A stretch of DNA of 59,987 nt from a virus (lineage: Duplodnaviria; Caudoviricetes), in IMG/VR virus record IMGVR_UViG_3300041779_000001, positions 1 to 59,987 of that record; one strand, given 5' to 3'. Within the stretch, counting starts at the first letter, position 1. Each line of letters begins with the position of its first letter. Shown in pieces: positions 3,845 to 59,987 of this stretch. A model generated the notes under the pieces. The model made no database searches. It was not told the origin of the DNA and was given only the letters and a program-made list of their open reading frames with translations. The translations under genes were made by a program, and so were the position numbers.

Positions 3845-3898
3845 TTGACCCTCAGCCTCCCCGGCCGATAGGATGACTTTACAGCCTTGACCGAGGAG
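3845..3898 (+). promoter_or_regulatory. Sigma70/HrdB-type promoter plus TGACCGAGGAG leader motif
   Basis: TTGACC-N18-TAGGAT; motif at 3888-3898 before GTG 3905. Confidence 0.7.
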
Positions 3899-6025: not shown

Positions 6026-6096
6026 TTGATTTCCCGTAAGGCCCCAGATAGCATGATCTACATACGCCTCGCCCTATTGAGGCTGACCGAGGAAGG
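6026..6096 (+). promoter_or_regulatory. Promoter plus TGACCGAGGAAGG leader motif
   Basis: TTGATT-N17-TAGCAT; motif at 6084-6096 before GTG 6105. Confidence 0.65.
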
Positions 6097-6104
6097 TACC
6101 ATCA

Positions 6105-6848
6105 GTGGCTGAATCTGCAACCTCCATGATCCTTGACTTTACTAACGTCAAGGACGGCGGTAATTTCAACACCAAGCGGGTACCAGCGGGTGACTATCTC
6201 GCTAAGGTGACCAAGGTCATCGACGCCCCGACCAAGAAGAAGGATGACGGCAGCGGGGGGGACCCCCAGTGGACCTTCACCGTTGAGCTGGTCGACAAGT
6301 ACTCGGATCGCAAGTTCCCGTACCGTTGCAAGCTGGAGGCCAACCAGCTCTGGAAGATCCGCAACCTGTTCATCGCCGGCGGGATCGTCATCCCGAAGAA
6401 GAAGATGAAGGTCGACCCGAACAAGGCCGTAGGTCGTCTCATCGCCGTCTCGCTCGATGATGACGAGTACGATGGCAAGATGCAGTCAGTGATCTCTCAG
6501 GTCTTCCCGGCCAGTGAACTCGATGATGCCGGCACTGACACCGACGATGTCGATGAGAACGAAGAGGAGGATGACGAGGAGGAAGAGGAGGAGCCCGCCC
6601 CCGCGCCTGCTCGTCGCAAGAAGGCTGCCCCGGAGCCGGAGCCCGAGGAAGACGAAGAGGACGAGGAAGAAGCTGAGGACGACGAGGAAGAAGAGGAAGA
6701 GGAGCCGGCACCGCCCGTAAAGGCGCGGGCCAAGGCGAGCATTCCCGCTCAGCGCAAGGCTTCTCCCACGGCCACCAAGACCCGAGCCAAGGCGAAGCCG
6801 GTCGTCGAGGACGACGAACTCGAGGAGCTCGACCTCACCGAGATCTGA
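6105..6848 (+). CDS. Single-stranded DNA-binding protein (DUF669-like) with long acidic/Ala-Lys tail
   Basis: VPAGDYLAKV OB-fold-like N-terminus, acidic C-terminus, Sak4-SSB synteny. Confidence 0.7.
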   Translation: MAESATSMILDFTNVKDGGNFNTKRVPAGDYLAKVTKVIDAPTKKKDDGSGGDPQWTFTVELVDKYSDRKFPYRCKLEANQLWKIRNLFIAGGIVIPKKKMKVDPNKAVGRLIAVSLDDDEYDGKMQSVISQVFPASELDDAGTDTDDVDENEEEDDEEEEEEPAPAPARRKKAAPEPEPEEDEEDEEEAEDDEEEEEEEPAPPVKARAKASIPAQRKASPTATKTRAKAKPVVEDDELEELDLTEI

Positions 6849-6938
6849 TCTTCTCGGGATGAGCAACGAGCTAAAAAATCTATCCTCCGTCCGAAGTCTA
6901 GCCTTGACGTTTCATCGACCGAGATGAGATGATTGGCT

Positions 6939-7070
6939 TGGTTCGATCGCAGATTCCACCCGAGAGGCCCCCACACCTTTGGGATTTGCAATCGGACCAC
7001 CAAGTTCGGGCAGTCCGGTTTCCTAAAAAACCCTCCTCGGTCAAAGTAGGGGGAGACCGGACTGCCCTTT
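6939..7070 (+). ncRNA. Candidate two-hairpin small RNA
   Basis: TTGACG(6904)-N18-GATGAT upstream; stem 6939-6958/6980-6999 (20 positions, 3 G.U, 1 mismatch); 16-bp stem 7008-7023/7052-7067 followed by TTT. Confidence 0.65.
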
Positions 7071-7088
7071 GTCGTAAGAGGAGAAGCG

Positions 7089-7256
7089 ATGACATGGATC
7101 AAGTCCTCTCACTGCGGAGCTAATAACTCTTGCATCGAGGTCAACATCGAAACTGAGACAGTCCAGGTTCGAGACTCAAAGGATGATCAGAGCCCAGTAC
7201 TCACGTTCTCTCGAGAAGCCTGGGTAGACTTCCTCGTGATGGCCCCGAACAACTGA
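7089..7256 (+). CDS. DUF397 (BldB-like) protein, 55 aa, absent from the ORF track
   Basis: MTWIKSSHCGANNSCIEV...VQVRDSKD..SPVLTFSREAWVDFL matches the W.KSS..C.EV..VRDSK..W..F signature; GAGGAG RBS. Confidence 0.9.
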   Translation: MTWIKSSHCGANNSCIEVNIETETVQVRDSKDDQSPVLTFSREAWVDFLVMAPNN

Positions 7257-7257
7257 C

Positions 7258-7557
7258 ATGACAACACAACGCGAGTCTCGTATCAGTGGAAACATCTTGG
7301 ATGCCCTTCGTGCTCGAGGGGTATTCTGCTTCAAGATCCAGGGTGGTCCGACGATGATGAGGGGACTGCCGGACATCATCGCTTGTGTGGATGGCCACTT
7401 CGTGGGACTGGAAACAAAGGTTCCAGAAAAACGAGGTAATGTAAGCGTCATCCAGAGACGAGTTCATGAGTTGATGCGTCAGGCTGGAGCTACAGTGGTA
7501 GTAGTCTGCGGAGTGCAGGAAGCACTGGCAGTGATCGATCGAGTAAAGGGTGCATGA
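7258..7557 (+). CDS. VRR-NUC domain nuclease (Holliday junction resolvase-like)
   Basis: GLPDII...FVGLETK...Q pattern. Confidence 0.88.
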   Translation: MTTQRESRISGNILDALRARGVFCFKIQGGPTMMRGLPDIIACVDGHFVGLETKVPEKRGNVSVIQRRVHELMRQAGATVVVVCGVQEALAVIDRVKGA

Positions 7558-8138
7558 TGATTGCCTGGTACGATACGGAATTTCACGAGAGGGGCCATCA
7601 CTTCCCGATCGACCTTATCAGCATCGGGTTGGTGCGCCAAGATGGCTTCCAGTACTATGCCATCTGTTCAGAGTTTGACTTCGAGGCTGCCTGGAATAAC
7701 CCAGGCAAAGATGGCGACTACTGGTTGAGGGAGAATGTCCTCAAGCAACTACCCCTGATCTGGCCCGAGAATCGATCCACACCTAAGCTGGATAAGGCCC
7801 ATGCTAGTGTTCGTAGTCGGGCAGCAATCCGACGCGAGCTGATGGTCTTCCTCGGGCTAGATGGCCTGAACCCCGCTGAGATCGAGCTCTGGGCATGGTA
7901 TGCCGACTACGATCACGTCGTACTCTGTCAGCTCTTCGGGACTATGGCTGAACTGCCTGCTGGCATGCCTATGTTCACCCACGACCTCAAGCAGGAACTC
8001 GCCCTACATGGCAACCCGCCCATGCCGGCACAGGTGAGGGGGCATCACAACGCCCTCGATGATGCTTTGCACCTCAAGTATATGTGGTCGCATGCCAAGG
8101 CTCGAGGACTCGTCAACAAGACCACACCTATCAACTAG
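7554..8138 (+). CDS. DEDDh 3'-5' exoribonuclease, Rv2179c/RNase AS-like
   Basis: YDTEF, IDLISIG, WAWYADYDHV.LCQLFG.M..LP, HHNALDDA. Confidence 0.88.
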   Translation: MMIAWYDTEFHERGHHFPIDLISIGLVRQDGFQYYAICSEFDFEAAWNNPGKDGDYWLRENVLKQLPLIWPENRSTPKLDKAHASVRSRAAIRRELMVFLGLDGLNPAEIELWAWYADYDHVVLCQLFGTMAELPAGMPMFTHDLKQELALHGNPPMPAQVRGHHNALDDALHLKYMWSHAKARGLVNKTTPIN

Positions 8139-8737: not shown

Positions 8738-9008
8738 GGCCGGATCACCTTTAGGCGGTGCGGGTATTTGGTCATGCCTCAATGCTATGGGCAGGGGGCA
8801 TACGAGTCAAGGCGCATAGGGCTATCCTCAAGCGATGGGCTCGCCATCATCGCCCAATCATGCCTACTCGCTAGCCCATGCGATTAGGAATATCCGTAGG
8901 GCTCTCTAATGGGTGATTGCGCATGACTGATCGATGCGCGATGCGAGCTATTAACCACGCCAATGAAGGCCGGCCCTGGCGCGGGCCGACCCTCGGGTGT
9001 GTGGGAGA

Positions 9009-9494: not shown

Positions 9495-9617
9495 GAATCC
9501 TCCTCGGTCAGGGGGGCAGCTGATGTAACCATAGTATCCTTCTTATAATGCCCCGTCAAGGCTTTGCCGGCAAGCATTACTTACACACCACGAGGGCCGC
9601 CGAAGCGGCCCCCGAAG

Positions 9618-10596: not shown

Positions 10597-10748
10597 GGTC
10601 ACCCTCCTCGGTCATAGGTGGTGTGCCCTAAATAGGGTAGGGCAATACTGCCATACTCTTGGCTGATAAGTCAAGGTGAACGACAGGGCCGTTTGAACAT
10701 ACCTCCTCCTCTCATCTCGGTGGATGAGATTATGAGGAATGAAGCGAT

Positions 10749-11033: not shown

Positions 11034-11121
11034 TATGTGCCTCCTCGGTCAAAGGTGGGTGATGCAGCTACCCTACCTCGGCATCATGTGGGCGTCAAGG
11101 CTCTTGGCCAAATTTAATTCT

Positions 11122-12796: not shown

Positions 12797-12978
12797 TGCC
12801 CCAGGCTCCTCGGTCATTTGGTGAATGGTGCAGCATCACAATATCGACCAGAGCACTGGGCGTCAAGGCACGTGGCATTGCTACTGGAATACAGCAACCT
12901 GTGAAGTTTGACAATAAATTGACGTCAATAAATAATGAAGTGACCAACCAACCATTTTCAACTTGGAAAGGACTAGAG

Positions 12979-19219: not shown

Positions 19220-19361
19220 TCGCCCAAGGCCCCCGAAAGGGGGCCGAAGGGTGTGTAATCGCCAGGGGGCGTTCTGCGCGCAGCAATCGGGGTGTGGAAT
19301 GCTAGCATACACCCCGCGATGATCTTGCCTTACAACGTCATACAAAGCTTCGGCGATTTCC

Positions 19362-19390
19362 TTGACACCGTGGGGGCGAGGGGGTAAAAT
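19362..19390 (+). promoter_or_regulatory. Near-consensus promoter for a leaderless gene
   Basis: TTGACA-N17-TAAAAT-N6-ATG. Confidence 0.8.
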
Positions 19391-19396
19391 AAAGGT

Positions 19397-19612
19397 ATGA
19401 ACAACGACGATGCAATCGACAATGCAATTGACGCCCTCGATGAATTCCTGACCCGCGCGATCGACGCTCTGCCGATCACCGCCTTCGAAATCTCTTCCGA
19501 TGATGCTAATGCCATCATCGCATCGATCCCCGAATCGATGATCAAACTCTCCGACGCCCTATACGATGCTTTCATCGAAAATATCCCCGATTTCACTTCG
19601 CCTGACGCCTAA
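19397..19612 (+). CDS. Small highly acidic protein
   Basis: Leaderless start; D/E-rich with one K and one R. Confidence 0.7.
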   Translation: MNNDDAIDNAIDALDEFLTRAIDALPITAFEISSDDANAIIASIPESMIKLSDALYDAFIENIPDFTSPDA

Positions 19613-20644: not shown

Positions 20645-20803
20645 ATTGCCCTCGCCCCCTCCGGGGGGCTGAGCGGCGTCGTAAGGCATGATCCTTCCTA
20701 CAGGAATGCTGGCATACGGGACGGGATGATCATGCCCCCACACCCCCAAAGATTGCTACGTCAGGTCCTTGACACTACCCGGCCTAGGGGGTATATTTAA
20801 GGC

Positions 20804-21367
20804 ATGACAACGACACCGCACACCGACTGCCACCACCCCGCGACGAAGGCCGCCCGCGCGAAGTGCCGCAAGGCCCGTGCGGTGCAGGTCGAGGCCCCCC
20901 GCACGATGAACCTTGACGAGGTGATCAAAGCCTACTACAATAACTCCCTTGACATGGAGGAAATCGCCTCGCGGCTGATCGCCCTCGCCCCCAAGGCCGC
21001 CGAGGGATTCTACAACAACTCCCTCACCAACGAGGAAGTCATCGCCGAGGCCATGAAGGCCCTCAACGGCCCCACTGAGGCCCCCGCGACCGCCCCCGAA
21101 CCTGAGGCCACCCGCATCCATCCGATGCTTCTCGACGCCGTTAACCCCATGATCACCCTCACCGCGAATGACTCCTCAACTGAGGTTCCCTACCTCGACC
21201 TGAAGCTGATCATGCGCACCCCCCACCCGAGCCGGGTAATGGCCGGGGGAATGGGAAAGGCAATGCTTCGCCACCGCCAAATCCTTCGCTCCCTTACCGC
21301 GGCATTGGGAATCACCGAGGATAAGGCAATCGCCCTCGCCAATGCCGCGGTAATGGAATTGCAATAG
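20804..21367 (+). CDS. Hypothetical protein with N-terminal HxxCxHxxTKAARAxCR motif (leaderless)
   Basis: TTGACA-N17-TATATT-N6-ATG; internal YNNSL..EE repeat. Confidence 0.7.
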   Translation: MTTTPHTDCHHPATKAARAKCRKARAVQVEAPRTMNLDEVIKAYYNNSLDMEEIASRLIALAPKAAEGFYNNSLTNEEVIAEAMKALNGPTEAPATAPEPEATRIHPMLLDAVNPMITLTANDSSTEVPYLDLKLIMRTPHPSRVMAGGMGKAMLRHRQILRSLTAALGITEDKAIALANAAVMELQ

Positions 21368-24281: not shown

Positions 24282-24620
24282 ATGAAGCCTTCGGAGCTCC
24301 GATATGCGGCTCGTGTGGAAGAGAGAAACCCTACCGACCGGGTCAGGGGCACCGTTGTTAATGTGGATTCTTCAGGTATGTTCGTTGTAAAATACGACAA
24401 TGGGGATTATCTGGCCTTCCAACGGGAGCAGGCTCAGGATTTTGATTCCATTCCTGAGAAGCCTATCCCGGGCCATGCACGAGAGCTGATGCGGCGAATC
24501 TATGACACCCATGGGCGTACACCGCCGGAGGATGTGATCGGCGTTGCCGGCAAGGTGCCCGGGGCTCGTCGGGGGGTTGCCTTGACTCGTGATGCTGCGC
24601 CCCCTACAATCGAGGCATGA
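24282..24620 (+). CDS. Hypothetical protein (SH3/DUF4314-like), leaderless
   Basis: RGTVVNVD...VKYDNG; TTGACT-N18-TAGAGT-N6-ATG. Confidence 0.6.
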   Translation: MKPSELRYAARVEERNPTDRVRGTVVNVDSSGMFVVKYDNGDYLAFQREQAQDFDSIPEKPIPGHARELMRRIYDTHGRTPPEDVIGVAGKVPGARRGVALTRDAAPPTIEA

Positions 24621-24868
24621 CACTAAGACTAATCACAGAGCTTGAAGCAGTCCACGAGGTTCACGAGATCATGGCTCTGGTGACTCGAGCTAAGCAAAAT
24701 CGCGAGCACCAGAAACTGGATCTCGCTCAGGACCGCAAGGAAGCTTTGTTCGAGCGAGTGGTTAACACCGTCGCTAAGGCCCCGATTTTCGTCGACAAGC
24801 AGGAACTTCGCAGTATAGCTCTGACTGCCGCGAAGTTGACGGATCCTGATCTTTGGAACATGGAGTAA
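24617..24868 (+). CDS. Hypothetical protein
   Basis: ATGA overlap. Confidence 0.6.
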   Translation: MTLRLITELEAVHEVHEIMALVTRAKQNREHQKLDLAQDRKEALFERVVNTVAKAPIFVDKQELRSIALTAAKLTDPDLWNME

Positions 24869-43006: not shown

Positions 43007-46000
43007 ATGGCACCCCAATTTATGCTGCGTACGGTTACTTCGGTTGGCAACCTCGATCAATTTTTGCCCGATGTTCAAAGCCTAACTCTCTCGCCTGTAT
43101 TCTCTCAGGCTGGCTCGGTAATCTTCACATATCCTCAGAGTGGCAAGAATTACAACTTGCTGGTTGAAGATACTGAGATTGCCGTGATGATCGACGGGGT
43201 CGAGGCTGGGGCACTTCGATGCATCCTCGAACAGATCGAGGGAGATGATGCCAATGAGGCTGCCGATGGTATGGTGTGGACATTCACTTGCCGCACAACC
43301 ATGGCTCTCTTTGACCGGGCGGTAGTTTATCCTAAGGGTTGGCCTGGTGCTAATAATCCCCCGACCCATAGTTGGACTACCACCACTGCTGGGGGAGTCC
43401 TCAAGGACCTGGTGGCTAAGGCCCAAGGTCGAGGAACACTCACCGATCTCACTTTGGCCTTCGACAATGTCCATGACTCGGCTGGACAAGCATGGGCAGA
43501 AAACCTCGACAACCTAAGCTACGATGCTGGCACTAAGTATTCTGATATCATCCAGGGTCTGGTTGATGGTGGATACTTGGAAGTATCGATGGATAGGCGA
43601 ACTCTGTCAGCCTACAATCCCGGTACTCTCGGCGTCGATAGATCAACCGGTACTAATCCTCTGAGGTTCCATGAGGGTCGGGATCTAAGTGAGTCTCCCC
43701 GTAAGGTAAGTACTCGGGATCTAGCCACCTACTTGTTGGTTGCCGGCACGAATAATGCCTATGTTGAACAGGGCTCCGCTTCTGACATCGTCACCCAATG
43801 GGGTCGACGGGAATCGTATTACTCCGCTAATAACTCTGATGCTGAGGGTGTGCTCAGAGTAACGGGGTCATGGAAACTTGCTACCCTCAACCGGCCTCTA
43901 CTCGAGGTCACCCACGGTCTAGTTTTTGAAGACTCATCAAACCCCCGGCCTATTCGAAACTTTGGCCTAGGTGACTGGGGTCTAAGCGATGTAGGGCGAG
44001 GGTGGGAACGATACCGGATCAAGCAATGGGTCATGGTATTGAATGCCGACGGAACTGTTAATGGTTCTGTAACCCTGAACGACCTCATTGCCGAGCAGAT
44101 CGATAAGCTCAATTCTCGTCTTGGGGGTATCGAGAATGGGAGTTCGGCTACTGGCGGATCTGACGAGGTCGACGATGGAAAAGCTCCGGCAGTTCCCACG
44201 GGCTTGAATTTGACCAGTGATTACTACCTCAGTGGTACTCAAGCTCTGGCTATCATTACTGCGAACTGGGTAGCAGTTACCACAAATGCCGATGGATCTG
44301 TTGCGACCGACCTCAACTACTATTTGGTAAGGTGGAAGTACTCTACCGATACCAACTGGCGGACTACGCAGCGAATCGACAACGGCGATACTGTCGCCTA
44401 CTTCGACGGGTTGTTCCCGAATCAAACTGCTCAGGTTCAGGTTGAGGCGGTCGACAAGTATAACCGAGTCAGTGGATGGTCCCCAACCGTATCAATCACT
44501 ACAGCCTTGGATACTATCCCCCCAGTAAAACCCTCGGCACCGGTAGTAGTATCCAACGTTGGAACTCTTCGGGTAACTTGGAGTGGCCTCGATTACCTGG
44601 GCAGTCAGCAGGCACCCGACTTCAAGGGTGTGGAGGTACACATTGGAACTAATGGTACTTTCACCCCCGATAACACCACACTAAAGGATTTCCTTACCTC
44701 TCGGTCCACTACTTCAACCACCATCACCGGGTTGACTTATGGAACTGATTGGTTTGCTCGACTGGTCGCTGTAGATACTACGGGCAACCGAAGTGCCCCC
44801 TCTGACCTGACCTCGACTAGTCATGCTGTACTCAACCAGATAGTCAGTGTTGAAATTGGTACTGGGCAGGTTGGTCTCAACAACACCGCATTCAGTGACG
44901 TTGGTAACCTGCTCGACGATGGATCCTTCGAGATAGCTACCAAGCGAGCTGATCGCCAGACTCAGATCAACGGCACTCACTTGGCCTTTGATTCCTCAGT
45001 CTCCTCGAGTGGGGCCTGGAGTCTGAGAAGTGATTCATTCGTCGCGGGTACGGTCGAATACTTCACCCTCCAGGATGCGCTTCCAGTCAAACCTGGAGAG
45101 CGAATTTTCGGTGCGCTTGACCTCAGGGCCACTAGCGGCTTCACCGGGGCGGTTAATCTCGACATCGCCTGGTTCAATGGAACCGGTACCCAGATAGATT
45201 CTGCCGGCAACCCCATTGCCAACTTCTATACTCTGGCTGGTACAGCTAATACCGTAGCAGATAATAACTGGCATGCTCGGGTGACTGGAGTATCATTGGT
45301 GGCACCCCCCGGGGTAGCTACCATGCGACTGCTATTGTATACTTCTGGACGAACTGCTGGTACCGTCTGGGCAGATGCAATCGAGGTACGTAAGCAGATA
45401 GATACTCTGCTGATCCAACAGGCTGCTATCACCACGGCATTGATCGCTAACTTGGCGGTTAATAATGCCAAGATCAGTGACTTGAGCGTCGGTAAGATCA
45501 CCGCCGGTACCTTGAATGCCGATATCATCGTCGGCTCGAGAATTAAAACGGCTGACACCGGGGCCAGAACTGAGATGAATACTTCAGGCTTCGGGGCCTG
45601 GGATTCTTCTAACACCCAGACTTTCTCGGCCTCATCTTCTGATGGCTCCATTGTCATAATTGGTAGCCTTAAATCTGGGCCTGCCGGTAACCGGGTTGAG
45701 ATCAACCCTTCGGGAGGGTTGCCCGAGATAAGGTTCTACCCCTCAACGGGTAGTAACTATGCATTCATCAACGCGTTTAGCCCAACCGGATCTGGGTCAG
45801 CCTTCCTGGGACTTAACTCGGGACAATCTACGCTGAATGGGCAAACTTCGTCATTCCGAATTTTCATGGCGGATGACCAAGCTTCTTTCGAGACTATCAT
45901 ATCGGCAACCCAGGCAAAACTGGGTACCTATATAACTCTCTTCGAGACCGATGCTGCTTTTGCCTACTGCAATTCTGACGGTAGCGATGCGGGGTTCGTC

Positions 46001-46360
46001 TATGTCGGAAAGACCTCGACTACCGTCGGGTACAGCAGTACAAGCGACAGCAATGATACTTGGTGGTATTTCAACAATGACGGTACAACCGGGCTAGTTG
46101 GTCGATTCCCAAATAGCCCCAGTGTAGGACATAATGAGGCTATCTGGACGGGAGATGGCTCGGTAAGTTCAGCTTTCCAGGGGGTGGCATTTGGGTACGG
46201 AGTAACCATGCTCACCACTCCTCGGCCTTTGACCAGTCTATACTATGTGGGTGCTAGCCAACCCTTCTCCTGGGTCAGTGCCCGATCTACCACCGGGTTC
46301 ACCGCATCCTGGAATATCGCCCTCAGTATTACCGTGCAGTGTCTAGCTTTCAGGATGTGA
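43007..46360 (+). CDS. Baseplate hub/central fibre with fibronectin-III and carbohydrate-binding-like domains
   Basis: FN3 signatures (PAVPTGL, VEAVDKYNRVSGWS, AVDTTGNRSAPS); GNLLDDGSFE; AITTALIANLAVNNAKI repeats. Confidence 0.8.
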   Translation: MAPQFMLRTVTSVGNLDQFLPDVQSLTLSPVFSQAGSVIFTYPQSGKNYNLLVEDTEIAVMIDGVEAGALRCILEQIEGDDANEAADGMVWTFTCRTTMALFDRAVVYPKGWPGANNPPTHSWTTTTAGGVLKDLVAKAQGRGTLTDLTLAFDNVHDSAGQAWAENLDNLSYDAGTKYSDIIQGLVDGGYLEVSMDRRTLSAYNPGTLGVDRSTGTNPLRFHEGRDLSESPRKVSTRDLATYLLVAGTNNAYVEQGSASDIVTQWGRRESYYSANNSDAEGVLRVTGSWKLATLNRPLLEVTHGLVFEDSSNPRPIRNFGLGDWGLSDVGRGWERYRIKQWVMVLNADGTVNGSVTLNDLIAEQIDKLNSRLGGIENGSSATGGSDEVDDGKAPAVPTGLNLTSDYYLSGTQALAIITANWVAVTTNADGSVATDLNYYLVRWKYSTDTNWRTTQRIDNGDTVAYFDGLFPNQTAQVQVEAVDKYNRVSGWSPTVSITTALDTIPPVKPSAPVVVSNVGTLRVTWSGLDYLGSQQAPDFKGVEVHIGTNGTFTPDNTTLKDFLTSRSTTSTTITGLTYGTDWFARLVAVDTTGNRSAPSDLTSTSHAVLNQIVSVEIGTGQVGLNNTAFSDVGNLLDDGSFEIATKRADRQTQINGTHLAFDSSVSSSGAWSLRSDSFVAGTVEYFTLQDALPVKPGERIFGALDLRATSGFTGAVNLDIAWFNGTGTQIDSAGNPIANFYTLAGTANTVADNNWHARVTGVSLVAPPGVATMRLLLYTSGRTAGTVWADAIEVRKQIDTLLIQQAAITTALIANLAVNNAKISDLSVGKITAGTLNADIIVGSRIKTADTGARTEMNTSGFGAWDSSNTQTFSASSSDGSIVIIGSLKSGPAGNRVEINPSGGLPEIRFYPSTGSNYAFINAFSPTGSGSAFLGLNSGQSTLNGQTSSFRIFMADDQASFETIISATQAKLGTYITLFETDAAFAYCNSDGSDAGFVYVGKTSTTVGYSSTSDSNDTWWYFNNDGTTGLVGRFPNSPSVGHNEAIWTGDGSVSSAFQGVAFGYGVTMLTTPRPLTSLYYVGASQPFSWVSARSTTGFTASWNIALSITVQCLAFRM

Positions 46361-52454: not shown

Positions 52455-52550
52455 GTTATGCTCCTCGGTCGGTAGTTGAGCCCCTCAGCAGGGCATGCCC
52501 AAATGCTATATCGTCCCGTGGGGGGCGTCAAGGCAGCATTTTAACAACGA

Positions 52551-53567: not shown

Positions 53568-53744
53568 TGTAATTCTCCTCAAGTGGGGGATGTTATCATA
53601 AGCCCTAGGTGCTGGGCGGTGATGGGTAAAATATATCCTTCTAGTGGGGCGGCGTCAAGGCGGCCAGGCGGTTACGGGAACATTGACTCCTCATGCGCGC
53701 AGCATTAGCATTGCCTCATCAACCTCCTATTGACCGAGGCTAAA

Positions 53745-55944: not shown

Positions 55945-56027
55945 CCAATTGCCATGGCATTTGACTGATGCCTGACGGAAAGGATAGCATTTACTTATAC
56001 CGCCCCGACCGAGGAGGAACTGCTGCT

Positions 56028-59024: not shown

Positions 59025-59909
59025 ATGAGGTTGTACGCATCCAGTACATTCGAGGATCTGCCCAAGATGATCATCCGAGACTTTGTTGAACGAGCCGAGG
59101 AGGTTGATGTCGGCGAATGGCAATCGCGCGATATCAAGGGCGATCGCTCAAAGGTCACTTGGGAGCTCAGGGAAGCATCTCTGCATTTCGGGCTCATCAA
59201 CTCGATCGTTGGGGCAGCACAGGCGATCCAACCAAACCTGCCCTGGGCTGAGGACCACTTCCGCGAACGAGTCGGGGGAGAACCACTTAACCCGCCGCCT
59301 TCCCAGGCCTGGTGGCCGTTTGCCCAGGAAGGCCATAAAGATCACCTCGTCGGGGGAAAATTCTCCCACACCTATCCTGAACGATTCTGGCCCAAGCATG
59401 CGGCCCATGATCGATCGAATTGTCCCCATGTTGCCGAGATGCAAGACGGCAAGGATTCTGGCTACTACAGTAATTCCTGGGGTTGTAGCTACGGTGACCA
59501 TCGCGGGGTCAGGTTCGAGTATGGCGACTACAATGACGTGATCGATCGTCTGGTCAAGAACCCCCTCACTCGTCAGGCCTACCTCCCCATCTATTTCCCC
59601 GAAGATAACGGGGTGCCGGAGGGTGAGCGCGTGCCTTGTACGCTGGGGTATCTGTTCATGGTACGCAACAACCAGCTCCACCTCACCTACTACATGAGGT
59701 CCTGTGACTTCATGCGGCATTGGCGAGATGACGTCTATATGGCCAATCGTCTGGCTATAGACGCTATGGATCAACTGAACTACCACCTGTCCCCGGATCA
59801 CCCTCAGATCACCCTCGGGGACATGGCAATGCACATCGGCTCTCTGCACGTCTTCGAGGGTGACATGGCAATGCTAGAATACCTGCACAAGGAGAATAAG
59901 AATGCCTAG
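59025..59909 (+). CDS. Thymidylate-synthase-family enzyme, dCMP hydroxymethylase-like
   Basis: TRQAYLPI, VPCTL, YMRSCDFMRHWRDD, IGSLHVF; Asp at the N177-equivalent position. Confidence 0.85.
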   Translation: MRLYASSTFEDLPKMIIRDFVERAEEVDVGEWQSRDIKGDRSKVTWELREASLHFGLINSIVGAAQAIQPNLPWAEDHFRERVGGEPLNPPPSQAWWPFAQEGHKDHLVGGKFSHTYPERFWPKHAAHDRSNCPHVAEMQDGKDSGYYSNSWGCSYGDHRGVRFEYGDYNDVIDRLVKNPLTRQAYLPIYFPEDNGVPEGERVPCTLGYLFMVRNNQLHLTYYMRSCDFMRHWRDDVYMANRLAIDAMDQLNYHLSPDHPQITLGDMAMHIGSLHVFEGDMAMLEYLHKENKNA

Positions 59910-59987
59910 CACATGGATTCCGCCCAAAGGCAAGGTCTACACCATCGCGGTCGACTTCGACGGGGTCATCCATGACTACCATCGGGG
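59862..59987. repeat. Second copy of the 126-bp terminal repeat
   Basis: Identical to 2-127. Confidence 0.97.

Follow-up and report, generated by a model that had tools for sequence, protein, structure and literature searches.

A conserved hairpin loop complementary to the ribosome-binding leaders of eight genes in an uncultured phage

The window analyzed here is a full IMG/VR virus record of 59,987 bp, with a completeness rating of 100% and a G+C content of 55%. It contains an element of two predicted hairpins in the 240 nt that separate an SSB-like gene with an acidic tail (6105-6848) from a DUF397 gene (7089-7256). The second hairpin has a loop that is complementary to a motif containing the Shine-Dalgarno (SD) core in the leaders of eight genes of the same phage, and both hairpin and motif were conserved in related phages, where they changed together. 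Based on these comparisons we consider it reasonably probable that the loop would pair in trans with about eight leaders, cover their ribosome-binding sites (RBSs) and lower their translation.

The whole window was searched exhaustively for exact complementarity to the 28-nt loop. The initial annotation had listed nine complementary leaders, and all nine sites were recovered as exact matches, eight of them given in Table 1 and the ninth a 10-nt match at 53730-53739. Eight of the nine held up as leaders, with a start codon 5-12 nt downstream that opens a reading frame (ORF) of 52-352 aa, all oriented with transcription. The site at 53730 has neither SD completion nor a credible start and was rejected as a leader. 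Using 10-nt words, the window contained 43 matches to the loop, 19 of which belonged to the loop's own site, leaving 24 non-self matches as compared to a mean of 2.29 and a maximum of 8 in 100 mononucleotide shuffles. The complementarity of the loop is beyond chance. The motif itself, GACCGAGGAG, is the most repeated 10-mer of the window, with 8 copies. The targets named initially (nuclease, SSB, kinase, HTH) were also found, as the products behind the eight leaders are an exonuclease, an SSB-like protein, a helix-turn-helix (HTH) protein and a thymidylate-kinase-like protein along with four without assigned function. When the loop's own copy of the motif was read on the minus strand, no start codon was present within 2-15 nt, again as first described. 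A minus-strand gene start at this copy was rejected, as none of six genomes has a start codon following it, and no convincing minus-strand promoter was seen.

Most of the eight leaders are located 13-29 nt after a TTGAC...TAG(C/G)AT-type promoter-like site, and these target genes are therefore the first genes of transcription units. The distance from motif to start codon was fixed (5-12 nt) and the motif contains the SD core, whereas the distance from motif to -10 was variable, from about 13 to about 29 nt. This combination of fixed start-codon spacing and variable promoter spacing points to the RNA level. Small GC-rich hairpins (GCCCC...GGGGC) were also observed immediately 5' of the motif in leaders of the SSB, HTH and 52-aa genes (6063-6083, 10625-10645 and 52480-52500) and in several relatives.

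Folding of the plus strand of 6934-7075 produced two hairpins with an energy of -69.7 kcal/mol (z -6.05), and none of 200 shuffles folded as well. The minus strand of the same region had a z of -3.11. Both stems proposed in the initial annotation, 6939-6958/6980-6999 with three G.U pairs and the 16-bp stem 7008-7023/7052-7067 followed by TTT, were found by folding, and the promoter-like TTGACG-N18-GATGAT that it had placed before them is present at 6904-6933. Hairpin 2 has an energy of about -38 kcal/mol and a GC-rich outer stem, and carries the loop string ACCCTCCTCGGTCAAAG at 7030-7046. In the predicted fold a weak inner helix partly sequesters CCCUCC and UCGGUCA is exposed at the apical loop. 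Hairpin 1 was variable, with unrelated sequence in L010-L012, and is dispensable because it is missing from L013 and L014. Separately, a second conserved pyrimidine-containing element, GG(C/T)GGCCGGAATCCT(C/G)C, was observed about 40 nt upstream of hairpin 2 in a distant subgroup of carriers (L216, L217, L209, L208 and L210).

The element did not match known RNA families. Rfam returned no match for the whole window at gathering score, and with permissive thresholds on 6800-7150 only sub-threshold hits were found, the best being gntR-DTE at 20.1 bits against the 63.6 required. The 6C model of Rfam gave no match at any threshold used, and an ARAGORN search for tRNA and tmRNA found none in the element region. 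A small ORF through the hairpins was rejected, as homologues have stops in all three plus-strand frames and two of them are missing hairpin 1.

Relatives of the window were sought using the neighboring Sak4 and SSB proteins and the loop string. Five relatives (G001-G005, Sak4 identity 71-82%) had the element at the same position, and more distant carriers were G007, L111, L112 and L115 together with 13 of 59 further viral loci identified using a covariance model. In all, 23 contigs carried the element at the same place, the window and 22 other uncultured phage contigs, every one of them with a strong hairpin and a promoter-like site of the TTGACN-N17/18-GATGAT type. The covariance model found one copy per genome. 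It missed the hairpin of G007, which was spotted by eye, and the distant carriers are known mostly as loci of 9-15 kb. The same fold with the core at the apex was seen in all 10 of the first homologues and in 13 more distant ones. Stem covariation was evaluated in six phages (the window and G001-G005). Nine of the 16 pairs had changed on both sides and 92.7% of cells were paired, as compared to 0-2 pairs and 35-51% paired in slid controls, and the observed pair number was reached in only one of 500 shuffles. Judged from these aligned sequences, hairpin 2 is under structural selection.

The loop was conserved where the leaders were, in agreement with the initial proposal. The 14-mer CTCCTCGGTCAAAG was invariant in 6/6 close relatives and the C(T/C)CCTCGGTC core was kept in 10/10 homologues, with variants in distant phages. 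As RNA this core, C(U/C)CCUCGGUC-like, is the complement of the leader motif. The leader motif heads orthologous genes in G001-G005, and TGACCGAGGAGG with at most one mismatch occurred 7-10 times per genome in these five relatives as compared to 0 for the reversed control. The promoter-like site was also kept in the 10 homologues examined closely. The five close relatives have TTGAC(G/A)-N17/18-GA(T/A/C)GAT with an upstream TG, TTGACN-N17/18-(G/C)A(T/A/C)GAT is located upstream of the hairpin in L010-L014, L003, L112 and L115, and L111 has TTGACA-N17-TAGAGT.

In the window, (T)TTCAT...ATGAGA forms an imperfect inverted repeat within the spacer of this promoter. In four of the five close relatives (G001, G002, G003 and G005) the spacer and -10 of the hairpin promoter (window 6910-6933) are overlapped by the inverted repeat CTCAT-N5/6-(C)GAGATGAG. 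A similar palindrome upstream of the HTH gene (10711-10728) was seen in the window only, and L115 carries another palindrome, TAGTCATGACTA, a perfect one, at the same position. The repeat in the promoter spacer may be an operator.

Loop and leader covariation in related phages, which the initial annotation had suggested looking for, was observed: altered loops went with altered leaders, and relatives without the hairpin were also without the motif. The window and its five relatives, with the loop CUCCUC, had 7, 5, 6, 6, 4 and 4 GACCGAGGAG leaders (32) and 0, 0, 0, 1, 0 and 0 GACCGAGGG(G/A) leaders. G007, with the loop CCCCUC, had one GACCGAGGAG leader and seven GACCGAGGG(G/A) leaders (Fisher p 2.8e-6 vs the six genomes, a value that overstates the contrast because the change is a single evolutionary event). 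The co-evolution was also clear in L217 (loop GGUG, leaders CACC/UACC), L209 (loop GGUG and CCCUC, leaders CACCGAGGG of the CACC/UACC type) and L205 (loop GGUUG, leader CAACCGAGGAG, 11 nt). It was partial in L208 (loop CGGGGG and CCCUC, leader CCCGAGGG, 8 nt) and mixed in L178 (loop CCUCAGU, exonuclease leader ACUGAGGAGG, 10 nt).

In a cross-test, 21 phages were each scored against 13 distinct 12-mers from the loops, using the three longest in-register matches among leader candidates. Candidates were pre-filtered: each had to contain YYGAGG, be followed by a start codon 3-12 nt away, head an ORF of 45 aa or more and have an in-frame stop no further than 75 nt upstream. The phage's own loop was strictly best in 8 of the 21 (window, G003, G005, G007, L192, L217, L209 and L205), and in four of the seven variant-loop phages the own loop took sole first place. 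In several close relatives a near-identical loop, different at one end position, scored above their own. Counting leaders with at least nine contiguous matches per loop class resulted in poor discrimination because the loop classes have a core in common. Co-absence was seen in the whole genomes of G006 and G008, which had 0 and 0 motif leaders and no anti-leader loop, and whose SSB-resolvase gaps contain an ordinary terminator plus promoter or an unrelated hairpin. Eight further loci of the G006-like clade had neither the motif nor a covariance-model match. Base pairing of the putative hairpin RNA with the leaders is the best explanation of these comparisons.

Pairing energies were calculated as duplex energy plus opening costs, with opening of the loop costing 6.1 kcal/mol. 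The eight leaders had loop-leader energies of -8.3 to -17.7 kcal/mol, as compared to a mean of +0.2 (sd 5.6, best -12.9) for 56 other start regions. RNAcofold net energies were dropped, as this program cannot form loop-target pairs across a closed stem. In the predicted fold of most homologues CCUCC is half-buried in the weak inner helix and the CGGUC part is exposed.

Table 1. Positions of the element, the complementary leaders and the downstream operon in the window
Feature	Position	Strand	Details
Promoter-like site	6904..6933	+	TTGACG (6904-6909)-N18-GATGAT (6928-6933), TG one base before -10; 9/12 consensus matches (promoter scan)
Hairpin 1	6934..7002	+	26 predicted pairs, 4 G.U (3 G.U within 6939-6958/6980-6999); apical region C-rich
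Hairpin 2	7008..7067	+	One G.U in the 16-bp outer stem 7008-7023/7052-7067; 6 weaker inner pairs
Anti-leader core	7033..7042	+	CUCCUCGGUC inside 14-mer CTCCTCGGTCAAAG (7033-7046); complement of leader motif GACCGAGGAG
Tail	7068..7088	+	Pyrimidine-rich TTTGTCGTAAG, then RBS of next gene
Downstream operon	7089..8138	+	DUF397 7089-7256; Holliday-junction-resolvase-like nuclease 7258-7557; RNase H/Rv2179c-like exonuclease 7554-8138
PD-(D/E)XK exonuclease leader	3887..3898	+	TTGACCGAGGAG, 12 nt; GTG 3905; after TTGACC-N18-TAGGAT promoter-like site; motif in orthologous leaders of G001, G002, G003, G005
SSB-like leader	6084..6093	+	TGACCGAGGA, 10 nt; GTG 6105; directly after small 5' hairpin; motif kept in G001-G005
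161-aa gene leader	9499..9510	-	TGACCGAGGAGG, 12 nt; ATG 9494; after TTGACG-N17-TACTAT
HTH DNA-binding gene leader	10601..10614	-	TGACCGAGGAGGGT, 14 nt; ATG 10596 (187-aa protein); motif kept in 5/5 close relatives
94-aa gene leader	11040..11054	-	CTTTGACCGAGGAGG, 15 nt; ATG 11033; after TTGACG-N17-TAGGGT (read by eye, not in promoter scan)
207-aa gene leader	12806..12816	-	TGACCGAGGAG, 11 nt; TTG 12796; motif kept in G001-G004
52-aa gene leader	52461..52470	-	GACCGAGGAG, 10 nt; ATG 52454; motif kept in G002 and G003
Thymidylate-kinase-like gene leader	56007..56017	+	GACCGAGGAGG, 11 nt; GTG 56028; after TTGAC...TAGCAT; motif kept in G001-G004

In the mechanism that we propose, a plus-strand RNA would start near 6940 at the conserved promoter and the very stable hairpin 7008-7067 would display CUCCUCGGUC at its apex. 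This sequence would pair in trans with (U/C)GACCGAGGAG, which in about eight transcription units makes up the SD region of the short leader together with its 5' extension. Pairing would cover the RBS, and translation, perhaps also mRNA stability, would fall as the hairpin-bearing transcript accumulates; we infer transcription, the sign of the effect and its timing. Because CCUCC is half-buried and CGGUC exposed, we infer that pairing begins in the phage-specific half, with the exposed UCGGUCA nucleating on UGACCG of the leader. The duplex would then extend into CCUCC, half-hidden by the inner helix, which would give specificity over host SD sites and spare ordinary host GGAGG sites.

The initial annotation had described the regulator as a free, trans-acting RNA of about 130 nt. 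The link between loop and leaders is backed by loop conservation, matched changes and co-absence, but the free small RNA (sRNA) form was not borne out, as a T-run was found in the window only and the hairpin is close to the next start. The sequence right after the stem in the window is CCCTTTGTCGT (TTTGT). The first eight positions of the tail hold five T in the window and L011 and three or four in most other homologues, YNTCGTAG is kept after the stem in relatives, and the terminator scan, which has a loop limit of 8 nt, called no terminator at the tail. Any terminator here would be weak or partial at best. In seven homologues the resolvase gene is next (L011-L014, L111, L112 and L115), with no promoter between it and the hairpin. 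The putative RNA is likely the 5' leader of the downstream operon rather than a free sRNA, and a leader-borne or partly terminated RNA appears at least as likely as a free one, because of the missing T-run, the short distance to the next start and the lack of an intervening promoter. It would probably be the 5' leader of the DUF397/resolvase/RNase H-like operon mRNA, from which a short form could arise by partial termination or processing.

Several observations weigh against trans pairing of the hairpin RNA with the leaders. Four of the eight targets failed to beat the best control start region in pairing energy (the other four beat every control), and the CCUCC part of the loop is partly paired in the predicted fold. 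The G.U pairs, taken initially as a sign of selection on RNA structure, are present and the stem covaries, but the strand argument is weak: the plus strand was favored energetically in just 7 of 10 homologues, which leaves the promoter and gene orientation as the main basis for assigning the strand. A run of at least three T right after the stem occurs in the window only, among the 10 homologues examined closely, and in nine of these 10 a distance of 20-27 nt separates the end of the stem from the next start codon (in G007 about 40 nt). This placement fits a cis role in the downstream mRNA as well as a trans role. In the cross-test the own loop was not first in L178 (seven loops better), L189 (six), L208 (one) and several close relatives, and the YYGAGG pre-selection of leader candidates favors the family. 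L210, L201 and L112 yielded no informative leaders within their 9-15 kb (L210 had a single uninformative candidate), little or nothing came from L189 in its stretch, and L115 has the hairpin, yet its exonuclease and SSB leaders, in a 5.3 kb stretch, are without the motif. Co-variation of loop and leaders would also be expected from one DNA-binding protein that reads the motif both ways, and all 23 carriers are uncultured contigs.

Such a protein could be a phage regulator, e.g. the HTH protein, for which the 10-12 bp motif would be a duplex-DNA site acting as a stoperator-like roadblock just downstream of promoters, with the hairpin copy as a reverse site controlling the resolvase operon. In Cluster A mycobacteriophages the phage repressor binds its stoperators as duplex DNA. 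The window motif is asymmetric, occurs in multiple intergenic copies and is oriented with transcription, the HTH protein's own leader carries the best copy and its gene is kept beside the cluster, and one protein site would co-vary across all copies as seen. The accessible part of Pope et al. (PMC3203893) sets the start-associated sequence (SAS) of Cluster K phages against the L5 stoperators and leaves protein binding open. We nevertheless consider a DNA site unlikely, as the fixed start-codon spacing that takes in the SD core, set against the variable -10 distance, points to the RNA level. The reverse copy is always at the apex of a hairpin with compensatory stem changes, of which a duplex site needs none, and UACC opposite GGUG in L217 is tolerated as G.U pairs where a DNA site would have plain mismatches. 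It is also rather improbable that the hairpin acts purely in cis, as part of the mRNA of the resolvase operon or of the SSB transcript upstream, where it would be a partial terminator or attenuator, a 5' stabilizer or a translation setter 20-27 nt downstream, with a loop that is anti-SD-like for local reasons. The tight placement before the next start in nine of the 10 examined closely, even with a different downstream gene (the window has DUF397 there and L010 a 31-aa membrane peptide), the kept YNTCGTAG, the small GC-rich hairpins that begin other leaders of these phages and a post-SSB hairpin with a C-rich loop in Triscuit, a phage without the leader motif, all agree with a cis role. A cis role leaves unexplained the 10-15 nt loop matches to leaders elsewhere, including on the opposite strand, and why the phage-specific GGUC part, beyond CCUCC, is kept and co-varies with the leaders; the RBSs of the downstream genes are also not conserved complements of the loop.

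Pairing could also be real and work in the reverse direction, with abundant motif mRNAs acting as a sponge or activator on the hairpin transcript, tuning the resolvase operon or titrating the RNA. Each genome has a single loop for about eight leaders, the hairpin directly adjoins the RBS region of the gene that follows it, and complementarity is symmetrical, giving no direction. We regard this as very unlikely. The 16-bp GC-rich stem is unlikely to be remodeled by loop pairing, and the path from pairing to downstream translation is therefore not obvious. In Cluster K1 phages the anti-motif lies in a gap where, in the portion of the Adephagia study available (PMC11373665), late transcription appears to begin, and repression of earlier genes fits this better.

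The window comes from a metagenome and is an uncultured actinophage, probably with a Microbacteriaceae-like host, because its large terminase shares 62-63% identity with the corresponding proteins of Curtobacterium phage Shrew and Microbacterium phages Triscuit and Huwbert. An exact direct repeat of 126 nt is present at both record ends (2-127 and 59862-59987) and could be terminal redundancy or a circular assembly overlap. Genes for the PD-(D/E)XK exonuclease and a Sak4-like annealing protein are located upstream of the element. Gene calls were crude and our own. The slot after hairpin 2 takes small genes, DUF397 in the window and a 31-aa hydrophobic/membrane peptide in L010 (5894-5990). In L011-L014 no gene is inserted and the resolvase directly follows hairpin 2, and the hairpin and RBS spacing are kept despite this variation.

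No cultured carrier of the system was found, one of the three cultured relatives Triscuit, Huwbert and Shrew (Sak4 58-60%, gene order in common) having been examined. In this one, Triscuit, the leaders are of the ordinary AAGGAG kind, the resolvase is leaderless and has a promoter of its own, and GACCGAGGAG leaders are missing. After its SSB-like gene (L153:7760-7815) there is a 12-bp hairpin with a 32-nt C-rich loop containing CCCUCCCC, followed by a TGATAGGAT promoter and the leaderless resolvase. No match to cultured phages was found for the intergenic region at the nucleotide level, and the 7-kb neighborhood gave short MazG-like matches only. A genome contig search returned two metagenome-assembled contigs, both without the motif, and a search for closer kin of G007 returned G007 itself only.

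Other features of the window were also recorded. The octamer GGTGTGGR was strongly over-represented on both strands, with 36 sites in the window (e.g. 5335, 14111, 16713 and 19291) and 56 in G006 as compared to a rough expectation of about 3-4 per genome. These sites were mostly within coding regions with a spacing of about 1-1.6 kb. Its complement occurs at 6970-6977 in the loop region of hairpin 1, and another in the loop of the post-SSB terminator of G006. The octamer may be a Chi-like or other DNA-level signal. Near-consensus promoters TTGACA-N17-TAAAAT/TACAAT with an ATG within a few bases were observed at 19359-19400, 20766-20807, 24579-24621 and 8771-8813, and look like a separate promoter class for leaderless or very short-leader genes. 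ARAGORN called a tRNA-Pro(CGG) at 45681-45754, inside a 1117-aa reading frame (43007-46360) from the crude ORF call, and the two calls conflict.

The closest parallel to this arrangement is the SAS and extended SAS (ESAS) of Cluster K phages, described in the accessible portions of three papers (PMC3203893, PMC11373665, PMC12699233) as a short asymmetric motif with an SD core, a few nt before the starts of 11-19 non-structural genes, often after a promoter and kept across related phages. As far as the available text of Pope et al. 2011 (PMC3203893) goes, the SAS has a single orientation except for one reverse copy per K1 phage without a gene start, was put at the translation level from its fixed start and variable promoter distances, and had its partner, RNA or protein, left open. 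Its function was still termed unknown in the accessible parts of papers on Adephagia in 2024 (PMC11373665) and Yasnaya_Polyana in 2025 (PMC12699233), the former stating that late transcription "appears to initiate" in the gap with the reverse SAS. The window motif is likewise asymmetric, SD-containing and in one orientation, 5-12 nt before the start of eight genes, and each genome has a single reverse copy, located in the hairpin loop and without a gene start. The consensus differs, GGGATAGGAGCCC in Cluster K as compared to (T/C)GACCGAGGAG here, and phages and hosts are unrelated, making the window system an analogue and not a member.

In Anaya the reverse SAS is in the gp96-gp97 gap, and folding of the plus strand produced a two-tier hairpin (z -3.99) with CCUCCUAUCC in its apical loop of 10 nt. 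An invariant TAGACT box and a first hairpin lie upstream of it, an anatomy as in the window. Conservation of this region extends to 142 Mycobacterium phage records, and in 138 of these it covers at least 80% of the length. This unannotated region near the right end of Cluster K genomes (L139:39700-39990, Anaya record ~59700-59990; L140-L149) comprises the TAGACT box, a small hairpin and hairpins A and B, with the reverse SAS as the apical loop of hairpin B in the K1 type. The parallel is suggestive for K1 and is no general rule because the anti-SAS loop was found in just 5 of 11 sampled Cluster K phages. Ekdilam, Amgine and TClif have other pyrimidine-rich loops, the Keshu loop is unrelated, and Yuna and SirPhilip are without the loop; Ekdilam has 13 exact SAS copies and a loop that is only partly complementary.

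We put forward tentatively, as a possible but doubtful generalization, that start-associated leader motifs of actinobacteriophages are docking sites for an anti-leader hairpin RNA on the 5' end of a later transcript that would shut off earlier genes, and that this arose or was maintained in two or more unrelated groups, namely the 23 uncultured Microbacteriaceae-like phages and Cluster K1. Antisense RNAs that cover RBSs are known. Among open-access papers and bioRxiv we found no proposal of the reverse SAS copy as an RNA partner, and no description of a regulon with about eight leaders of a dedicated motif and one matching conserved hairpin loop. If true, this would give a function to the SAS motif, unexplained since 2011, and would represent a compact RNA-based timing device for phage gene expression. 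The 15-year-old SAS question also becomes testable at the bench, as the laboratory strain M. smegmatis mc2 155 is a host for K1 phages such as Adephagia, for which early, late and lysogen RNA-seq has been published.

Other phage and bacterial systems share parts of this design. Phage T4 shuts down early mRNAs at their ribosome-binding regions using RegA, a translational repressor protein, and RegB, a nuclease that cuts GGAG. The candidate described here would likewise be a phage factor acting on the RBS regions of many early/middle mRNAs, but as an RNA rather than a protein. An antisense RNA of phages P1 and P7, c4, was reportedly described by Citron and Schuster in 1990, and is processed from a precursor. 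In the part of the source available (PMC8198154), c4 is located at the head of an operon, base-pairs with mRNA sites and blocks the downstream genes. As an operon-borne antisense RNA it is a precedent for a regulator carried in a 5' leader, although its sites are in its own operon (icd/ant) whereas those here would form a dispersed regulon, and there is no sequence or structural homology (no Rfam match). The 6C sRNA of high-GC Gram-positive bacteria binds mRNAs through C-rich loops without a chaperone, according to the accessible text of PMC6486639. The element resembles 6C, as presented there, in its stable hairpin, C-rich loop, predicted G-C-rich pairing with many mRNAs and actinobacterial setting. 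In that same account 6C is a host RNA with generic C-rich loops, whereas the phage element combines a phage-specific loop extension with a dedicated leader motif.

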